DNA of 64,000 nucleotides from Escherichia coli O127:H6 str. E2348/69 (lineage in GTDB: Bacteria; Pseudomonadota; Gammaproteobacteria; Enterobacterales; Enterobacteriaceae). Each line of letters begins with the position of its first letter. The first letter of the stretch is position 1. The stretch lies in the NCBI RefSeq assembly GCF_000026545.1, contig NC_011601.1, one strand, 5' to 3'. Of this stretch, positions 1-8,004 are shown one piece after another. Both the position numbers and the translations under genes were made by a program. The notes beneath the pieces are model-generated. The model was given only the letters and a program-made list of their open reading frames with translations, was not told where the DNA came from and did no database searches.

Positions 1-619
1 GACACCTATTCACAACAAGTTTATTGCTGCACTTGTTGTAGAGAGTATTTGTAAAAACATTTTATGTCGCTAAATAACATGACGATTTCATTATGCATGT
101 TATTTATAAACAGCGACTAAACAGAATATTATTGCGAACAAGGGAAGTGTCAGGAAAGGTCAAGAGGTACTAATAGTTTATATGGCTATAAACATTAGCT
201 ATGGTTAATGTTTGCCTGGTGAAACTAACACCAAATTGCTGTAACCCTCTTTGAATCATAAACTGAAGGATGATGCAGCACAGTTCCTCGCGGACTATCC
301 TGGCTACTACATGACCAAACGCGGATATCATCCTCAAGCAGTCAACTCTGGCAATCTTTTTACTCAGCTATGAGGACCTGATCGTCGACTTTGCCATCTG
401 CATGATGAATCTCCTCAGCAGCAGATGCAGTATTTACCGAAATGAATCCCATGAATAATGCAGTAATTAGTAGTGCTTTCATATCTGATGCCTGTTTTAA
501 ACGATATATTTGGAAGTTGACGAATATCGGAAGGAGCTTCCTCCTTCTTGATCTGTAAATATACAGTTCTAAGCTGTCATAAGACTGACTGTCATATGAC
601 AACGTTGTCAGATTTTTGA

Positions 620-910
<291 letters not shown>

Positions 911-1258
911 TGAATCTAGTTCATAAGATAAATCCGTAACACTCACTTGTTTTAACTTAATATTTTTAATAAAAAGATTAAGTTACTTCCAAATAGCTTC
1001 ATGAACTAGCTAAGAATGCGCTTCATCCAAGGCCTCCTGAAGGCGTTCGGGGATACAATTTAGGGAAGCCTCGAAATGTTGCTGCTCAGCAGCTTTTTCC
1101 ATCCAGTCCCGAAACTAGTTAGGGGTTACTCCATACATTGTTAAATGTCAAAATATTGATAAATGTTTTATAGATAACAGTAAGTTAGCCATATTTTTTC
1201 ATTGACCTTTCATTTGTGACGAAGCAAACTGACCTGAATAGTCGCATAGGGATGTCAT

Positions 1259-2359
1259 ATGATTCCTGAAATTGAACTTAGAGATATTCAGCCAAAGGGA
1301 AGCAGTGATGTCCCGTCGTCTTCGCACATTCAGACTGGATTACCGATTCCAAAAACAGTGCGGGTTCAGTTCTTTAGCCCTGACGAATGGGAGTCGTTTA
1401 CAGAGGAATGGGCAAGTTATCTCAAAAATGAATATGTTGCAGCCAGACGCTTTGGGGGTTCTGGTGATCTTGGGATAGATATTGCTGGTTTCTGTTCTGA
1501 CAAGGGATTCGAGGCGGTATGGGATAATTATCAATGCAAGCGCTATGGACATCCTCTTCGGCCTGGTGATATCTGGGTTGAAATTGGCAAGATTATTTAT
1601 TACTCATATCTTGGCAAATATACCCCTCCACGAAAGCATTTTTTTGTTTGCTCTCAGGGAATAGGAACCAGTCTTGAACAGTTGTTGAACAAGCCTACTG
1701 AGTTGAAAGAAAAATCGATTGAAAACTGGGATAATTACTGTCTCAAGGGTATCACTTCTACTGCTGAAATTCCGTTGACTGGTGCATTAAGAGCTTACCT
1801 CGACGCATTTGATTTCACTATTTTCTCATCAAAATCGATAGTTGAGCTTATCGAAATTCATGCCAGAACGGGTTTTCACTCGGTTCGCTTTGGCGGCGGG
1901 CTGCCGTATCGGCCTAATCCATCTTCTCCACCAACCATACCGACGGAAAATGAAAGCCGATACATTCGCCAGTTGCTTGATGCCTATGGAGACCATTTAG
2001 GCACAAATTTACCAGACGCTGCTTCGTTGGCGTCACACAATCAATTTCGTAGTGACTATCTTCGCCAGCGCGAACGTTTTTATCACGCAGAATCGCTAAA
2101 GAATTTTGCGCGAGATACTGTTCCTGCGGGGACATTTGATGCCTTACAGGATGAAATCTACCATGGCGTAATTGATGTCTGCGAAGATTATCACTTGAGT
2201 GGATTTGCGAGAATGAAAGAAACCATGAAGCACGCTACCACTATCGCTGTCACATCAAATCCGTTGGTCACTTCAATTAAAACACAAGATCGCCAAGGTA
2301 TATGCCATCAGTTGGCTAATGACGATCGCCTGATTTGGGTGCCAGATAATGAATCATAA
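1259..2359 (+). CDS. Mrr-like PD-(D/E)xK nuclease-domain protein; candidate effector (LmuA-like) of a Lamassu/ABC-3C-type defence operon
   Basis: 366-aa ORF; N-terminal motif RRFGGSGDLGIDIAG...WDNYQCKRY matches the Mrr-type restriction endonuclease catalytic signature (D..D...QxK); AGGGA 6 nt upstream of ATG; stop overlaps start of next ORF. Confidence 0.6.
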   Translation: MIPEIELRDIQPKGSSDVPSSSHIQTGLPIPKTVRVQFFSPDEWESFTEEWASYLKNEYVAARRFGGSGDLGIDIAGFCSDKGFEAVWDNYQCKRYGHPLRPGDIWVEIGKIIYYSYLGKYTPPRKHFFVCSQGIGTSLEQLLNKPTELKEKSIENWDNYCLKGITSTAEIPLTGALRAYLDAFDFTIFSSKSIVELIEIHARTGFHSVRFGGGLPYRPNPSSPPTIPTENESRYIRQLLDAYGDHLGTNLPDAASLASHNQFRSDYLRQRERFYHAESLKNFARDTVPAGTFDALQDEIYHGVIDVCEDYHLSGFARMKETMKHATTIAVTSNPLVTSIKTQDRQGICHQLANDDRLIWVPDNES

Positions 2360-2834
2360 AAAACATCCAGAGCCCTTTAATAGTCCTTTCGAAACCGGGA
2401 TACGTTCGCTTGCGATTCTGGTTGCAGCCTTCCCTGAGTCTTATGATTTGCAACGGCTAGTTGAAATGGATTATCTCGTTGTGCATTCCGGTGATGCTGA
2501 TGGTCCTGACAGTTTGCATGCCCCATTACCGATGCGTGCGGGCGAACTACTGGTCAGGCATGGTTTGATTGAAAAGGGATTGATGCTCATGATGAGCAGG
2601 GGGCTCGTCCAACGTGTTTCAGCCAGTGATGGGTTCAACTATCTTGCTGGGGAGCTCGCTGCACCTTTTATCTCTTCTCTTACGACTGAATATTCATGTC
2701 GACTAAAAGTTTGTGCTGAATGGGTAACTGGTGAATTTAAAGACCTGCCTACGCAGGAAATACGGAACATTACGCATCGCTTGTTTCAGCAGTGGTCGAG
2801 TCAGTTCCAGAGTATTCAGTCATCTGGAGGATGA
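2349..2834 (+). CDS. small protein, candidate middle component (LmuC-like) of the three-gene operon
   Basis: 161-aa ORF; ATG at 2349 overlaps the upstream stop (2357-2359) and its TGA (2832-2834) overlaps ATGATGATG of the next gene, implying translational coupling; no recognisable catalytic motif. Confidence 0.5.
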   Translation: MNHKKHPEPFNSPFETGIRSLAILVAAFPESYDLQRLVEMDYLVVHSGDADGPDSLHAPLPMRAGELLVRHGLIEKGLMLMMSRGLVQRVSASDGFNYLAGELAAPFISSLTTEYSCRLKVCAEWVTGEFKDLPTQEIRNITHRLFQQWSSQFQSIQSSGG

Positions 2835-4663
2835 TGATGAGCGATAATTATTTGCAGCTTAGAAAAATTTTGTTCCATGGCCAAACCAAAGAATCCGTTT
2901 TATCTTTTTCATCCGGTATTAATGTGATTTGTGGGGCTTCCGATACCGGCAAATCATTCCTGGCAGAAACTCTGGATTTTATGCTGGGTGGAACGGAGCT
3001 CAGGGAAATTACAGAATTAGCTGCTTATGCAGAAATAACTCTCGATTTTGTCACCAGTGATGGTCGAAGTTGGCGTCTTCAACGTGCAGTGACTGGCGGG
3101 AATTTCAAGTTAACTGATTTGGATGAGCCAGACTCGGAACCTATCGTGCTAAAACAGAAGTACGTTCGGGGTAAAACGGATAATATCTCCAGTTTTTTAC
3201 TTGAACAGATTGGCTTGCCGAATAAGGAGATTTTGAAAAGTAGTACCAAAGCGACGACTCAGGGACTGAGCTTCCGCAATCTGGCGAGACTTGCTCTGGT
3301 TCAGGAAGATGAAATTCAGCATAAAGGCTCTCCCTTTTGGAGTGGGCAGTTCACAACCAAAACCGCTGAACTGGCAACGGTCAAACTGCTGCTGACAGGG
3401 GGTGATGATTCTGCGGTCGTTGCAGTGAGTGGCGATGGTGTAAGCAATACGTCTCAGATTATGTTGATTGATGAGTTAATTGCGGAGTTATCCATTGAAA
3501 TTAAGGATATGGGAGAAGAGCGTGATGATCTGGCTTCCCAACTGACCCGCCTTGAACAATCTATTGAGAGTCAACGTGAATCGCTCACTGCCGCACAGCA
3601 GCAACTAGAGCAGTTATTACAACAAAGGGGACTGGCCTTTGATGAGCGAAACAAAATCCAGGGACGACTGGATGAGATATCCGAACTACTTGCCAGATTT
3701 ACACTTCTGAATGAGCATTATGTTATAGATATCAACCGTCTGAAATCCATTCAGGAGTGTGGCTTGCTCTTCATGCATATTGACGTGATTCCTTGCCCTC
3801 ATTGTGGAGCTAGTCCAGCTCACCAACACCTGGAACAAATATGTGATGGAGATGTAGATTCAATCATTACTTCAGCAACTGCCGAGATGCAAAAGACCGA
3901 ACGACTTTTGGCAGAGCTGAATTGTACAGTCAGAGATCTTGTCAGCGAAAAGCAACGCCTTGAGAAGCAATACATTGTCCATGAAGAGGATTATTTGCGT
4001 CTTGATAAAGCCATTCGGGAAACTATTGCTCCTGAAGTTGACAGTTTCAGGCACTCGTATGCTGAACTGATCGACGAACGGGCCAGTGTCCAGCAATCTA
4101 TTGATTTGTTCTCAAGATTGGACCGGCTGGAAAGCAGGAAAGTGGCATTACAAAGCGATACTCCGGTAAAAAAAGAAAAAAGTGCGGTGCAAAACGGCAT
4201 TCCAGAGTCTGTTGCCCATAGTCTGTCGTTAAAAATCTCCTCTATATTAAAAGACTGGCATTTCCCCGGAGCATGCCAGGTATTTTTTGACAAAGATACT
4301 TCGGATTTTGTAATTGATGGAAAACCTCGCGGTAGCCGGGGAAAGGGGCTACGAGCAATTACCCATGCGGCAGTCAGTGTCGGACTACTTGAGTTTTGCC
4401 AAGAAAATGGGCTATCGCATCCGGGATTCCTAGTTCTGGATTCCCCTCTACTGGCTTACTACAAACCAGAAGGTGAAGATGATGTAGCTTTGCAAGGTAC
4501 TGACTTGAAAGAGAAATTCTATGATTATCTTGTGAAGCACCATAATGAAGATAGTCAGATCCTTATTATAGAAAATCCGCATCCACCGCAAAGCATGAAT
4601 AAACAGATTACTATGACGGTATTCACTGGTAATCCTAGGGTTGGCCGTTTCGGATTGCTTTGA
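2831..4663 (+). CDS. SMC/Rad50-like ABC ATPase with central coiled-coil and CxxC hook (LmuB-like)
   Basis: N-terminal Walker A GASDTGKS (nt 2933-2956); long heptad-rich, Q/E/L-rich central region containing CPHC (nt 3794-3805); C-terminal hhhhD motif FLVLDSP (nt 4427-4447); GGAGG at 2826-2830; start chosen among ATG 2831/2834/2837 (track ORF begins 2792). Confidence 0.65.
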   Translation: MMMSDNYLQLRKILFHGQTKESVLSFSSGINVICGASDTGKSFLAETLDFMLGGTELREITELAAYAEITLDFVTSDGRSWRLQRAVTGGNFKLTDLDEPDSEPIVLKQKYVRGKTDNISSFLLEQIGLPNKEILKSSTKATTQGLSFRNLARLALVQEDEIQHKGSPFWSGQFTTKTAELATVKLLLTGGDDSAVVAVSGDGVSNTSQIMLIDELIAELSIEIKDMGEERDDLASQLTRLEQSIESQRESLTAAQQQLEQLLQQRGLAFDERNKIQGRLDEISELLARFTLLNEHYVIDINRLKSIQECGLLFMHIDVIPCPHCGASPAHQHLEQICDGDVDSIITSATAEMQKTERLLAELNCTVRDLVSEKQRLEKQYIVHEEDYLRLDKAIRETIAPEVDSFRHSYAELIDERASVQQSIDLFSRLDRLESRKVALQSDTPVKKEKSAVQNGIPESVAHSLSLKISSILKDWHFPGACQVFFDKDTSDFVIDGKPRGSRGKGLRAITHAAVSVGLLEFCQENGLSHPGFLVLDSPLLAYYKPEGEDDVALQGTDLKEKFYDYLVKHHNEDSQILIIENPHPPQSMNKQITMTVFTGNPRVGRFGLL

Positions 4664-4830
4664 TTAGGAGGATGGTTTGAATGGAAACACAATGCACAAT
4701 GTCGTGCAGTTGTTGCTGCGCACAATGGTCGTTTATGGACGAAGTTATCACTTCAGTCAAAAGAATTTTAAGTAGCTAAGCTGCGCGTTGGATAGGTAAT
4801 GAAATGACATAAACAGATATTATAGCGACC

Positions 4831-5292
4831 GTGGCATGTGCCATATCAGGGGTCGCCGCGCTATTTTCAGGAATAGCATTATGTCAATCAGCAAAAGCAA
4901 ACCGCAGAGCAAATCAGGTATCAGAGCGAGGCTTGCGTATTGATTTAGTTGATTGTCGTATGAATATACGGAATGCGTTCACGTTAATTATGGATGAGTT
5001 CGAGGCGCAGAGATACGGGCCAGCAGATAACTATATTATTCAGGCAAAAATCACCTTCCGTGATGCGGGTATATTTTTTGGTAATGACGTAAGTGAATTT
5101 CTTACCGAGTTAATGAGACAAATTAGCACCTACAGCGAGATATTTAAAACTAGGACAATGGGCCGTCTTATTTTTGACCCTCAAGGAGATGTTAGAGAGG
5201 AAGAGCAACGATTAGAACAAATAAGGCTATGGGTGATAGCACAGCGTGGGCCCGGCAATGACATGTTCGACAGAATCATGAGTGTTTCATGA
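4831..5292 (+). CDS. hypothetical protein, N-terminal hydrophobic segment; start uncertain (GTG at 4831 or internal ATG)
   Basis: 153-aa ORF with AT-rich rare codons (ata, aga, tta), followed immediately by a stem-loop plus T-tract; no motif recognised. Confidence 0.35.
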   Translation: MACAISGVAALFSGIALCQSAKANRRANQVSERGLRIDLVDCRMNIRNAFTLIMDEFEAQRYGPADNYIIQAKITFRDAGIFFGNDVSEFLTELMRQISTYSEIFKTRTMGRLIFDPQGDVREEEQRLEQIRLWVIAQRGPGNDMFDRIMSVS

Positions 5293-5302
5293 TACACGCT
5301 AG

Positions 5303-5332
5303 ACCCGGCCTCAGTGCCGGGTGTTTAATTTT
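5303..5332 (+). terminator. Rho-independent terminator-like hairpin downstream of the 153-aa ORF
   Basis: acccggc-ctcagt-gccgggt stem-loop followed by gtttaatttt. Confidence 0.45.
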
Positions 5333-5569
5333 CCTAACTACAACCGTCGCCTCACCGTCCCCCAAACGAATCGGAACAGCTGTTCCATGAACAGTCAGAT
5401 GGTGTGGCCCAAATTAGTTGCCCACTACACTTCAAGACTATAAATTCTGGAGTAACAGTCGGTTAGCTTCCTTCATGGGCCAGTCATGGCGAGTTGTTAA
5501 GTATGGCTGTTTGCGATAAGCTTTAGATACTCTTTAGCGTTGGACGGTTACGTCTAGTCGGGTGATTAG

Positions 5570-6607
<1,038 letters not shown>

Positions 6608-6681
6608 AAACCAAGGGAGAATCCAGTCGTTGGCGGTTCATGGATTGTTCTGCTCATTAACAACGACCAAAACCCCATATC

Positions 6682-8004
6682 TTACTTAATACCGTATTCT
6701 CGGCTTAACCGACCGTGCAACCTCAACACATTGGTTTCAACTGCCGTCACCACGTTCTCCGGAAAATCTGTCGGTAATGAAGTCTTCACGTTATCCAGTG
6801 CTGCCGGAATCATTCTGGCAAAGTCACTCAGGATTTCATGCATCTGCACTTCCGGGAATTTCAGCACCTTTGCTGTCGCCAGAAAATGTCGCGGATAAAT
6901 TTTATCGATTGCCGTTTTTTTGCCTTTGGATGCGTTAAGCCCCATTGCCAGTTTGAGATCGCTGATGTGTATTCCCGTACCGCCAAGGACCGGAAATGCC
7001 GAAATGATGTCATAAAATGGTGTGAGCCGATAACTGCCGCCAGCCTGAATAAATACGGAGAAGTTTTTTGCATGGCCATCCGTTGCGCCAATCAACCACT
7101 GGAAGACCTGAAACTTCATAAAATCATAGCGATCTTTCAGCGCCTCGCTGGAGCCCATCAAAAAAGCCATAATTTGCGCGATACCGGGGCCTCCATCTGA
7201 TTCATATTTCACCGATGAAGGTAAACCGAATGTCTGGCACATATCCTCCTGTGGCAAGCGAAGTAAAACCGTTCGCTCAGTATTCCAACGCCTGTCAAAA
7301 CGTTCGACCGCTAACGCGCGCACCCTTCCCGCTTTAATGATTTCTGCGTCCGGAACATTCAACCCGAGTTCTTTCGCCAGCAGCAAACAGTAATACTCAT
7401 TATCAACGCTTTGGCTAAGATCGAGCGTCGCATTGGGCTGTCTGATTTCGCCAATCGGCAATTTGATAATGTGCGTCGTTGGCGTTATTCCCTTCGGAAT
7501 GCACCAGTCATTGCCTATTCTGAGCAGCGCAGTCTTCTCCTGTGCGCCAGCAACCGAGATGCGAAAGTCATTTTCTTCTCTAATCATGCCTAACGGGATA
7601 TCTGCTTTATAAGCCGTTAATACTTCTTCAAGTCTGGCTTCAGTAAGCTTTTCCCATGCCATTATCGGACACGTTACGGTTTCATCTTCGGGGATTAACG
7701 TCACGGCACCAACGCTGTCTCGCCCTATTTCTGACAATAAATCAAACGGTTGTCTGGATTTAGCATGATAACGTTTAACGATCCGGTCACGTACAATCGG
7801 GCTATCGGGTAACAGGTTATCGAAGAAGTTAAATACGGCATCAGAGGTGATATTCCCCCTCTGCAATGGCAGCGAAAGTGACAACGGTCTGGCATAACGG
7901 CTGGCTAACCACTCAGGTGCATACTTAAAGGTGTGCGCGCCGTTGGCTAACTTCGTTAACTCGCCTACCCGCTGGTTGTTCATCCAAGTGACTAGTTTAG
8001 GCAT
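6682..8004 (-). CDS. hipA: HipA serine/threonine kinase toxin
   Basis: 440-aa protein beginning MPKLVTWMNNQRVGELTKLANGAHTF, near-identical to remembered E. coli HipA; start overlaps hipB stop. Confidence 0.95.
   Translation of the reverse strand: MPKLVTWMNNQRVGELTKLANGAHTFKYAPEWLASRYARPLSLSLPLQRGNITSDAVFNFFDNLLPDSPIVRDRIVKRYHAKSRQPFDLLSEIGRDSVGAVTLIPEDETVTCPIMAWEKLTEARLEEVLTAYKADIPLGMIREENDFRISVAGAQEKTALLRIGNDWCIPKGITPTTHIIKLPIGEIRQPNATLDLSQSVDNEYYCLLLAKELGLNVPDAEIIKAGRVRALAVERFDRRWNTERTVLLRLPQEDMCQTFGLPSSVKYESDGGPGIAQIMAFLMGSSEALKDRYDFMKFQVFQWLIGATDGHAKNFSVFIQAGGSYRLTPFYDIISAFPVLGGTGIHISDLKLAMGLNASKGKKTAIDKIYPRHFLATAKVLKFPEVQMHEILSDFARMIPAALDNVKTSLPTDFPENVVTAVETNVLRLHGRLSREYGIK

Follow-up and report, generated by a model that had tools for sequence, protein, structure and literature searches.

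A Lamassu LmuB ATPase on the Escherichia coli E2348/69 chromosome with a predicted zinc hook and a Walker B motif lacking the catalytic glutamate

Rad50/SbcC is the proposed evolutionary origin of Lamassu, and short Lamassu systems are described as having a Walker B of the form hhhhD[Q/S/T/E], between zero and two CxxC hooks, DNA-end sensing and tetramerisation of LmuA (PMC12663957). DNA-end sensing and the release and tetramerisation of LmuA are established for Vibrio cholerae LmuACB, whose LmuB has no zinc hook (PMC12663957). In Salmonella LmuB, defence is lost when the hook, Walker A or the signature is mutated, and the ATPase turns over at about 1/min with DNA (10.1101/2025.03.14.643221); regulation of LmuB ATPase activity by DNA has also been reported (10.1101/2025.06.23.660979). 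In E. coli SE15, Lamassu-Mrr acts as an abortive-infection defence for which the SMC ATPase site is required (10.1101/2022.05.11.491447). Zinc is not resolved in the published LmuB cryo-EM maps (10.1101/2025.03.14.643221; 10.1101/2025.06.23.660979), and the authors of the Salmonella LmuACB study list the need for ATP hydrolysis in Lamassu activation as an open question (10.1101/2025.03.14.643221).

We analysed a 64,000-nt stretch of the E. coli E2348/69 chromosome (the window), for which an original prediction had picked out three motifs: GASDTGKS (nt 2933–2956), CPHC (nt 3794–3805) and FLVLDSP (nt 4427–4447). Translation agrees with these assignments and places all three in one ORF frame. This ORF is lmuB, the third gene of an lmuA-lmuC-lmuB operon:

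1259–2359, + strand: lmuA, effector of 366 aa with a putative N-terminal Mrr-like PD-(D/E)xK nuclease and a C-terminal ABC-3C CTD6 domain (aa 232–360)
2349–2834, + strand: lmuC, middle component of 161 aa (PADLOC LmuC, E=1.9e-54; Pfam MC2, E=2e-47)
2837–4663, + strand: lmuB, Rad50/SbcC-like coiled-coil ABC ATPase, 608 aa from the third ATG

The mechanical lmuB ORF begins at GTG 2792 and contains in-frame ATGs at 2831, 2834 and 2837; we took ATG 2837 as the start because it is supported by RefSeq and by the N-termini of homologues (MSDN...). Assignment to LmuB is backed by the operon partners, as lmuA and lmuC lie directly upstream of lmuB in overlapping or abutting ORFs (the lmuC/lmuA overlap is 11 nt, and the lmuC TGA stop overlaps the ATG run that opens lmuB). 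The lmuB product matches PADLOC LmuB model PDLC03863 (E=2.3e-176, residues 16–622 of a 623-aa query starting at GTG 2792), eight more PADLOC LmuB models and Pfam AAA_23, and RefSeq names the operon genes as 'ABC-three component system' proteins. LmuB/DdmC, which had been suggested as a comparison, proved in both the PADLOC and the Foldseek searches to be the protein's own family. It is very likely that the ORF encodes the LmuB sensor of a three-gene Lamassu of the short Mrr type, an ABC-3C/DdmABC-like abortive-infection system, in which it would act as a slow, binding-driven switch.

The identity of the effector follows from matches to PADLOC LmuA (E=2e-133) and Pfam CTD6 (E=4.5e-48), and LmuA is 35% identical to LmuA of the E. 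coli Lamassu-Mrr locus, labelled 'Mrr nuclease' by Millman et al. Its N-terminal part carries a candidate nuclease motif, G69-D70-x-G72-x-D74 ... Q92-C93-K94, the residues of which are invariant in 37 homologues. Mrr_cat gave weak matches only, to 15 of these 37 (best E=0.012), the AF2 model was poor (pLDDT 53), and sequence and profile searches of LmuA against the PDB returned no matches. The motif and the weak HMM matches suggest a fold by which the N-terminal part of LmuA would be a putative Mrr-type nuclease.

The AlphaFold (AF2) model of LmuB has a pLDDT of 92.2, and Foldseek with this model returned Lamassu LmuB chains at ranks 1–5 (9hqu, 9hqx, 9uxh and 9nyg; E=2e-18 to 4e-14), followed by Rad50. 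Single-sequence phmmer against the PDB gave only marginal P-loop matches; a 100-sequence LmuB profile reached 9hqu (E=1.8e-22) and brought hook, signature and Walker B of the two proteins into register. LmuB is modelled as a split ABC head from which two antiparallel coiled-coil arms of about 100 residues each extend, with a CPxCG hook at the apex:

3446–3775, + strand: ascending coiled-coil arm, helices aa 204–225 and 229–313 (AF2), including the decoy motif IMLIDE discussed below
3776–3853, + strand: hook loop, aa 314–339, at the coiled-coil apex, with C320-P-H-C323-G at nt 3794–3808 followed by a His-rich stretch
3854–4153, + strand: descending coiled-coil arm, helix aa 340–439 (AF2 secondary structure)

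CPHC is the sole CxxC in LmuB. By itself the motif is weak evidence for a hook, because 8.7% of shuffled sequences of LmuB composition contain one; we accepted the hook because C320 and C323 are kept in 141/141 of the LmuB representatives used to assess conservation (29–56% identity), with G324 in 137/141. Against E. coli SbcC, hhalign put the LmuB CPHCG in register with the CPLCG hook (probability 86.6%, E=4.5e-6), and in the PDB profile search it fell opposite the CPMCG hook of Salmonella LmuB. The original prediction had placed a single CPHC near the midpoint of the heptad-rich region, where Rad50 and SbcC carry their hooks, and this held: AF2 puts CPHC in the loop between helices 229–313 and 340–439. 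By sequence and position, CPHC is a predicted zinc hook. A candidate intramolecular C2HC zinc site (C320, C323, H331 and C336) was rejected, H331 being present in only 42/141 representatives and C336 in only 48/141. A globular SMC/MukB-type hinge is absent from the apex of the AF2 model, where the 26-residue loop (aa 314–339) joins the arms.

The elements of the nucleotide site are as follows:

2933–2956, + strand: Walker A/P-loop, G33-A-S-D-T-G38-K39-S40, after strand 27–33 and running into helix 39–49 (AF2)
3302–3307, + strand: putative Q-loop equivalent, Q156-E157, from its position after a strand
4328–4354, + strand: divergent signature, R498-G-S-R-G502-K503-G504-L-R506, at the N-terminus of helix 503–523, leading into the Walker B strand
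4427–4447, + strand: Walker B strand F531-L-V-L-D535, then S536-P537; beta-strand 531–535 (AF2), following the signature helix
4556–4582, + strand: H-loop-equivalent strand, Q574-I-L-I-I-E579-N580-P-H582; strand 574–578 (AF2), with Asn replacing the switch His

In Walker A, G33, G38 and K39 are invariant (141/141) and position 40 is Ser or Thr in every representative. The Walker B Asp, D535, is likewise found in 141/141; at the next position 113 representatives have Ser and 28 have Thr, with no case of Glu, Gln or Asp, and Pro537 follows in 138/141. In the alignments FLVLDSP falls opposite LILDQP (9hqu) and IIYDQP (9ny5), and a pattern of the form hhhhD[EQD] occurs in the C-terminal 170 residues of just one of the 141 representatives. 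The claim that the Walker B Asp is followed by Ser-Pro with no Glu is thereby upheld, and the alignment indicates that the clade as a whole lacks the catalytic Glu and has Ser or Thr in its place. LmuB fits both parts of the Walker pattern expected for short Lamassu, Gx4GK[ST] and hhhhD[Q/S/T/E] (PMC12663957).

No LSGGQ signature was found in LmuB, as had been stated at the outset; its counterpart is a divergent R-x3-G-K-G in which G502 and G504 are invariant (141/141) and K503 is present in 133/141. In Salmonella LmuB the residue corresponding to K503 is the signature Ser S536, the HMM alignment setting G-K-G against G-S536-G (9hqu) and G-S-G (9ny5). At the Q-loop equivalent, position 156 is variable (D/S/N/T/Q) and E157 is found in 135/141; residues 157 and 503 covary, the pairs being E/K in 133 representatives, D/R in 4, E/Q in 2, Q/A in 1 and Y/A in 1. 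Q574 and N580 of the H-loop equivalent are kept in 141/141, and position 579 is Glu in 134 and Asp in 7. A profile of the C-terminal head alone gave weak E-values against the PDB (0.14–0.38), its alignment extending to the V. cholerae LmuB H-loop, QIIVLDHA (9ny5). Aligning the LmuB profile with the C-terminal head of E. coli SbcC (single sequence) by hhalign produced no meaningful alignment; the register of Walker B and signature therefore rests on the LmuB structures and the AF2 secondary structure.

Taken together, the LmuB nucleotide site retains the Walker A Lys and Walker B Asp, which serve ATP binding, and is missing the canonical hydrolysis elements, having no Walker B Glu, Lys in place of the signature Ser and Asn in place of the H-loop His. 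We tentatively propose, as a possibility that we hold to be less than even, that the Mrr/MC2/CTD6 LmuB clade has remodelled all three hydrolysis-linked motifs together (D-[S/T]-P, G-K-G and E-N), with the Q-loop Glu covarying with the signature Lys. With all three motifs remodelled, the LmuB homodimer would carry two degenerate, 'CFTR-NBD1-like' sites, and would be either a one-shot switch latched by ATP without hydrolysis or an enzyme working by a lysine finger in trans. This three-motif remodelling is possibly the only undescribed detail of the locus: in the literature searched, the Walker B variant is described and no description of the G-K-G and E-N changes was found.

Solved and assayed relatives suggest how such a site might be used. 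Two LmuB chains would dimerise via the hook and coiled coils, and the dimer, with LmuC, would hold one LmuA monomer sequestered and inactive. ATP-dependent head engagement would then allow the complex to clamp, or to recognise, an invader's DNA ends or replication intermediates, whereupon LmuA would be released, oligomerise through its CTD and become an active nuclease, killing the infected cell. The deviant ATP site would make LmuB a slow, binding-driven switch and not a motor, in keeping with the slow or regulatory sensor ATPase first put forward and, by analogy, with the published biochemistry of LmuB relatives, which are of the D-Q type. ATPase rates have been measured for D-Q type LmuBs only, and E2348/69 LmuB is of the D-S type; hydrolysis in the E2348/69-type clade is probably even slower than in the assayed D-Q type proteins, or absent. 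A D-S/G-K-G/E-N site might differ from the D-Q type in being either fully inactive or compensated.

The operon is an accessory element, found in 65/5426 E. coli genomes and mostly plasmid-borne, and is 99.9–100% identical in 67 E. coli records, many of them conjugative plasmids. On the E2348/69 chromosome it lies in a decayed island, flanked by pseudogene fragments (integrase, HTH and BhsA) and a truncated retron RT, and the GC content there is 0.40–0.45, against about 0.49–0.52 in the rest of the window. Canonical sbcCD lies elsewhere in the E2348/69 genome, its SbcC having LSGGE and LFLDE.

That the site is compensated, with hydrolysis unimpaired, is the alternative to be taken most seriously, although we consider it unlikely. 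K503 would serve as a trans lysine finger on the gamma-phosphate, and E579 or E157 as the general base replacing the Walker B Glu. K503, E579, N580 and E157 are nearly or fully invariant among the 141 representatives, E157 and K503 covary, and K503 aligns with the signature Ser that, in the motif of solved relatives, contacts ATP in trans. However, the covariation rests on eight exceptions that are probably phylogenetically clustered, and the same conservation would be expected if these residues stabilised ATP-dependent head engagement without catalysis; moreover, loss of either the Walker B Glu or the H-loop His cripples hydrolysis in known ABC ATPases. Decay is a further reading of the deviant motifs, which would then mark a non-functional gene in a degraded genomic island, as the pseudogene fragments and truncated retron RT of the flanks and the lower GC of the region might suggest. 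We regard this as very improbable, since the lmuA, lmuC and lmuB ORFs are all intact, the operon is near-identical in records that include conjugative plasmids, the deviant residues do not vary even among representatives as distant as 29% identity, and the same residues occur in a locus matched to the experimentally active Lamassu-Mrr.

The SbcC-like CPxCG hook, the Rad50 structures among the Foldseek matches and weak Rad50/SMC/RecN NCBIfam matches at the P-loop could be read as signs of a housekeeping Rad50/SbcC-type repair ATPase that, together with a nuclease, acts on breaks or hairpins in host DNA. Yet the NCBIfam Rad50 models score 14–15 bits against cut-offs of 700–1087 and all Rad50/SMC scores fall far below their cut-offs; LmuB has neither a D-E Walker B nor LSGGE, its neighbours are LmuA and LmuC and not SbcD/Mre11, and the presence of canonical sbcCD elsewhere and the accessory, largely plasmid-borne nature of the operon also argue against this role, which is effectively refuted. 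Even less credible is a mis-assignment of the motifs, a concern raised by the original prediction itself, in which the true Walker B would lie elsewhere. FLVLDSP had been called the only good Walker-B-like strand; that assignment stands, but a second hhhhD pattern with D-E, IMLIDE (aa 208–213, nt 3458–3475), had been overlooked. We judged it a decoy because it lies within AF2 helix 204–225, at the base of the coiled coil, and is not conserved (D in 57/141 and E in 61/141). In addition, IMLIDE is N-terminal, whereas ABC/SMC proteins carry their Walker B in the C-terminal head, alignments with solved LmuBs put Walker B at 531–536, and, as noted above, the C-terminal 170 residues almost never contain hhhhD[EQD]. 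The mis-assignment concern is thus refuted for Walker B, and is half right for the signature, which is present but strongly divergent. The reading of LmuB as the binding-driven sensor of a Lamassu system remains the preferred one.

The motif observations on LmuB are correct but ordinary, the zinc-hook motif and the Walker B without Glu being published family traits; novelty is low because earlier work on Lamassu covers CxxC hooks and hhhhD[Q/S/T/E] Walker B motifs in the short type, a slow ATPase stimulated by DNA, and defence that depends on hook and ATP site. The operon carries an ABC-3C annotation in RefSeq and is picked up by PADLOC; the finding adds little beyond the correct recognition, from raw sequence, of the hallmark features of a published defence ATPase. 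A literature search for Lamassu together with E2348 found no papers, and no structure or ATPase measurement of the D-S/G-K-G/E-N subtype was found in the PDB or in the literature searched. The result has modest value as a pointer, in that the EPEC prototype E2348/69 and many IncF virulence/resistance plasmids carry an intact D-S/G-K-G/E-N Lamassu, comparison of which with D-Q type LmuBs could show whether Lamassu activation needs ATP hydrolysis at all.

Among known systems, the Lamassu-Mrr of SE15 (O150:H5), for which a chromosomal locus of strain SA186 stands in (it is 100% identical to the SE15 clone over the clone's first 399 nt), has the same order as E2348/69, LmuA (Mrr-like plus CTD), LmuC (MC2) and LmuB, and also adjoins a retron. 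Its LmuB shares the hook and the deviant ATP-site set (CSLCG, S-H-G-K-G, VVIDSP and IVIEN), although identity to E2348/69 is only 28% for LmuB and 35% for LmuA; the SA186 type occurs on the chromosome of 511 E. coli genomes and on no plasmid, whereas the E2348/69 operon is mostly plasmid-borne. Salmonella enterica LmuACB (9hqu/9hqx) is the best structural and profile match and resembles E2348/69 in its CPxCG hook at the coiled-coil apex and its deviant Walker B. The two LmuBs are about 15% identical and differ in Walker B (D-Q versus D-S) and signature (G-S536-G versus G-K-G), and the Salmonella protein is 660 aa long, matches DUF3732 and, unlike that of E2348/69, works with a Cap4-type nuclease effector. 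V. cholerae DdmABC/LmuACB (9ny5, 9nyg and 9uxh) has the same three-component architecture and a short LmuB, but with Walker B IIYDQP, signature G-S-G and an H-loop, LDHA, that keeps the His. Rad50/SbcC proteins share the split ABC head, the antiparallel coiled coil and a CPLCG-type hook followed by His, while E. coli SbcC differs from LmuB in its LSGGE, its LFLDE, its much longer coiled coil (1047 aa) and its partner SbcD. Degenerate ABC-transporter sites such as that of CFTR NBD1 have a Walker B ending in LDSP, with Ser for Glu, and have lost the H-loop His; ATP binding at such sites is stable, and hydrolysis is very slow or absent. CFTR is a heterodimer in which the degenerate site has a competent partner site, whereas both composite sites would be degenerate in an LmuB homodimer, so that the likeness is an analogy of mechanism only and not one of close homology.

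The three genes of the operon, labelled 'ABC-three component system protein', 'ABC-three component system middle component 2' and 'AAA family ATPase' by RefSeq, matched the PADLOC models for LmuA (2e-133), LmuC (1.9e-54) and LmuB (2.3e-176), and their Pfam matches were ABC-3C CTD6, MC2 and AAA_23, respectively. The NCBIfam Rad50, SMC and RecN models matched LmuB at the P-loop only, with scores far under the curated cut-offs; from these matches, the operon is assigned as a type II, 'short' Lamassu system. In LmuA, G69-D70-x-G72-x-D74 ... Q92-C93-K94 is invariant among 37 homologues, of which 15 gave weak Mrr_cat matches, and the protein is 35 % identical to an LmuA labelled 'Mrr nuclease' by Millman et al. 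As its structure model is poor, we infer only a putative Mrr-type effector.

All motifs of the original prediction lie in the third gene, lmuB: GASDTGKS, CPHC and FLVLDSP translate from their assigned ranges in a single shared frame. The mechanical ORF begins with a GTG at 2792; the start at 2837, which gives 608 aa, is backed by RefSeq and by homologue N-termini (MSDN...), and residues are numbered from the Met at this position. At the lmuC–lmuB junction (2822–2842, GGAGG-ATGATGATGA), GGAGG precedes three in-frame ATGs (2831–2839), the first two overlapped by the TGA stop of lmuC, an arrangement that points to translational coupling. The upstream pair, lmuA and lmuC, share 11 nt (2349–2359). 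Conservation was assessed in an alignment of 141 full-length LmuB representatives from a 50 %-clustered library (29–56 % identity to the query), and the AlphaFold2 model was built from 100 homologues (mean pLDDT 92.2).

Motifs and AlphaFold2-predicted elements of LmuB (+ strand), with conservation among the 141 representatives
1–187: N-terminal head (predicted)
G33–S40 (nt 2933–2956): Walker A, with K39; G33, G38 and K39 141/141 each
E157 (nt 3305–3307): putative Q-loop; 135/141
204–225 and 229–313: ascending helices (predicted)
314–339: loop with CPHC (predicted)
C320-P-H-C323 (nt 3794–3805): hook; C320 and C323 141/141 each, G324 137/141
340–439: descending helix (predicted)
482–608: C-terminal head (predicted)
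R498–R506, including K503 (nt 4343–4345): signature region; R498 139/141, G502 and G504 141/141 each, K503 133/141, R506 138/141
F531-L-V-L-D535-S536-P537 (nt 4427–4447): Walker B; D535 141/141, position 536 Ser 113/141 or Thr 28/141 (never Glu, Gln or Asp), P537 138/141
Q574–N580: H-loop region; Q574 and N580 141/141 each, position 579 Glu 134/141 or Asp 7/141

In the model, the CPHC loop lies between the ascending and descending helices, which places the CxxC at the predicted apex of an antiparallel coiled coil where no hinge domain is present. CPHC is the sole CxxC of LmuB; since 8.7 % of shuffled sequences of LmuB composition contain a CxxC, the motif alone proves little, and the evidence for a hook is its conservation rather than its presence. 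With hhalign, the hook region matched that of E. coli SbcC (C506-PLCG; probability 86.6 %), while the C-terminal head, aligned directly to one SbcC sequence, gave nothing meaningful. The predicted apex, the two invariant cysteines and the SbcC alignment bear out the Rad50/SbcC-like hook position originally proposed. In most relatives, CPxCG precedes a short run of Pro and acidic residues, which leads into one to four His (aa 324–336, nt 3806–3844; consensus CPLCGA-PE-[HQ][QH]H), recalling CPLCGSSSHP of E. coli SbcC. A candidate fourth zinc ligand, C336, occurs in only 48/141 representatives.

Foldseek searches of the PDB placed Salmonella enterica LmuACB first (9hqu, E value 2e-18; 9hqx, E value 3e-18), ahead of V. 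cholerae-type LmuACB (9uxh, 9nyg) and then Rad50 complexes, SMC heads and JetC; a 100-homologue profile search also matched 9hqu (E value 1.8e-22), with hook, signature and Walker B aligned. CPxCG corresponds to CPMCG in Salmonella LmuB (9hqu), whereas V. cholerae LmuB (9ny5) has no hook. G502-K503-G504 aligns with G535-S536-G537 (9hqu) and G-S-G (9ny5), and VLDSP with LILDQP and IIYDQP, respectively. The 9hqu alignment stops before the H-loop; QILIIEN stands against QIIVLDHA of 9ny5, and an invariant Asn takes the place of the H-loop His. S536 of Salmonella LmuB is described as a 'signature motif' residue, and its Arg mutant was made to block head engagement (10.1101/2025.03.14.643221). Because K503 aligns with S536, the LSGGQ equivalent here is R-x3-G-K-G, a highly divergent form in which Lys replaces the Ser; a canonical LSGGQ is absent, as reported from the sequence alone, but a divergent counterpart had been missed.

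FLVLDSP, taken initially as the only good Walker-B-like strand, is indeed the Walker B: FLVLD forms β-strand 531–535 directly after helix 503–523 in the model, with an additional strand (574–578) leading into E579-N580. However, a second hhhhD-E motif, IMLIDE (LmuB 208–213), had been overlooked. It is helical in the model and not conserved, and is rejected as a decoy. Only 1/141 representatives has hhhhD[EQD] within its C-terminal 170 residues; together with the residues at position 536, this indicates that the lack of the catalytic Glu is a fixed trait of the aligned clade, neither a lesion of this copy nor the mis-assignment that had been offered as an alternative.

The hook and a Walker B lacking Glu have both been published as Lamassu family traits, and the operon is already picked up by standard pipelines. 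In the LmuBs of short Lamassu systems, the Walker A is canonical, the Walker B reads hhhhD[Q/S/T/E] and there are 0, 1 or 2 CxxC hooks; LmuA1B2C1 detects dsDNA ends and lets go of LmuA, whose tetramer is the active nuclease, and an origin from SbcCD has been proposed (PMC12663957). A 2023 review gives 'CPxCG or similar' hooks and an E-to-Q Walker B (PMC10586767), while the LmuBs of B. cellulasensis and V. cholerae have a 'naturally deviant' Walker B, the former with a CQYC hook at its distal tip (10.1101/2025.06.23.660979). Salmonella LmuACB hydrolyses ~1 ATP/min, with DNA only, and phage defence is lost when its LmuB carries zinc-hook mutations, K40I in Walker A or S536R in the signature (10.1101/2025.03.14.643221). 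A sensor or clamp rather than a motor, as first suggested, agrees with this accepted view.

The 'Lamassu-Mrr' operon of E. coli SE15 protects through abortive infection, and mutating its SMC ATPase site, effector or lmuC abolishes defence (Millman et al., 10.1101/2022.05.11.491447). The first 399 nt of the SE15 clone have at least 99 % identity to 511 E. coli chromosomes; at one of these, the SA186 locus (L004), the operon comprises LmuA, MC2 and a 628-aa LmuB. This LmuB, 28 % identical to that of E2348/69, carries CSLCG, S-H-G-K-G, VVIDSP and IVIEN. Judging by the matched locus, a Lamassu with the D-S / G-K-G / E-N site seen in E2348/69 functions in vivo and depends on its ATPase site, which may serve at least ATP binding. 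The SA186 locus also adjoins a retron (Ec67-family RT, L004:3244–5001).

What looks like a decayed retron lies just downstream of the E2348/69 operon, with an msr RNA at 5529–5593 (+; Rfam RF00170, 79.9 bits, E value 6.7e-14) followed by a reverse transcriptase ORF (region 5529–6061, +) spanning only about the first 120–145 residues of retron RT models (positions 1–123 of 308 in PADLOC RT_I-A; NCBIfam St85-family). An intervening ORF (4831–5292, +; RefSeq: 4990–5292, 100-aa hypothetical protein) matched nothing in PADLOC, NCBIfam or PHROGs and is followed by a terminator-like hairpin (5303–5322). Between a fimbrial cluster and hipBA, RefSeq pseudogene fragments (HTH protein, BhsA, site-specific integrase) flank the operon on both sides, GC content is 0.40–0.45 in the first 6 kb of the window against about 0.49–0.52 for most of the remainder, and nt 1–6700 resemble what is left of an integrated defence or mobile island. 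The entire operon (1100–4800), chromosomal in E2348/69, recurs with 99.9 % identity on large conjugative plasmids from E. coli and Klebsiella; 57/67 lmuB matches in complete E. coli genomes are on plasmids, and 43/51 PLSDB matches are conjugative. The single plasmid examined was IncFIB/IncFIC, and iss, ompT and mig-14 lay close by.

A housekeeping Rad50/SbcC is rejected, given the sub-threshold NCBIfam scores, the absence of an SbcD partner, a canonical sbcCD (LSGGE, LFLDE) elsewhere in the genome and the accessory nature of the operon (65/5426 genomes). A decaying gene is also rejected, given intact ORFs, 99.9–100 % identity over 67 records and motifs invariant down to 29 % identity. Alternatively, though we consider this unlikely, the site could be compensated, K503 supplying a lysine finger in trans and either E579 or E157 acting as the base. 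The only hint is that E157 and K503 covary (E/K 133, D/R 4, E/Q 2, Q/A 1 and Y/A 1), suggesting that they touch directly, either within one chain or between engaged heads, but the covariation comes from few, probably related sequences. A more novel reading, less likely than not, is that in the Mrr/MC2/CTD6 LmuB clade the already described D-S or D-T Walker B changed in concert with a G-K-G signature and an E-N H-loop; the literature searched held no description of the coupled G-K-G and E-N changes in this clade, and literature and PDB searches returned neither a structure nor an ATPase measurement for a D-S type LmuB.

LmuB thus belongs to a Lamassu operon, has a fold with an apex hook and keeps its ATP-binding residues, and three residues classically tied to hydrolysis are replaced clade-wide. 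By analogy with studied relatives, LmuB would dimerise via hook and coiled coils, LmuB2–LmuC would sequester one LmuA, and ATP-dependent head engagement on DNA ends would set LmuA free to oligomerise and cause cell death. NBD1 of CFTR has a degenerate, ATP-retaining site with an LDSP Walker B and a lost H-loop His. The LDSP Walker B and missing H-loop His of LmuB resemble this site, and an LmuB homodimer would carry two such sites.
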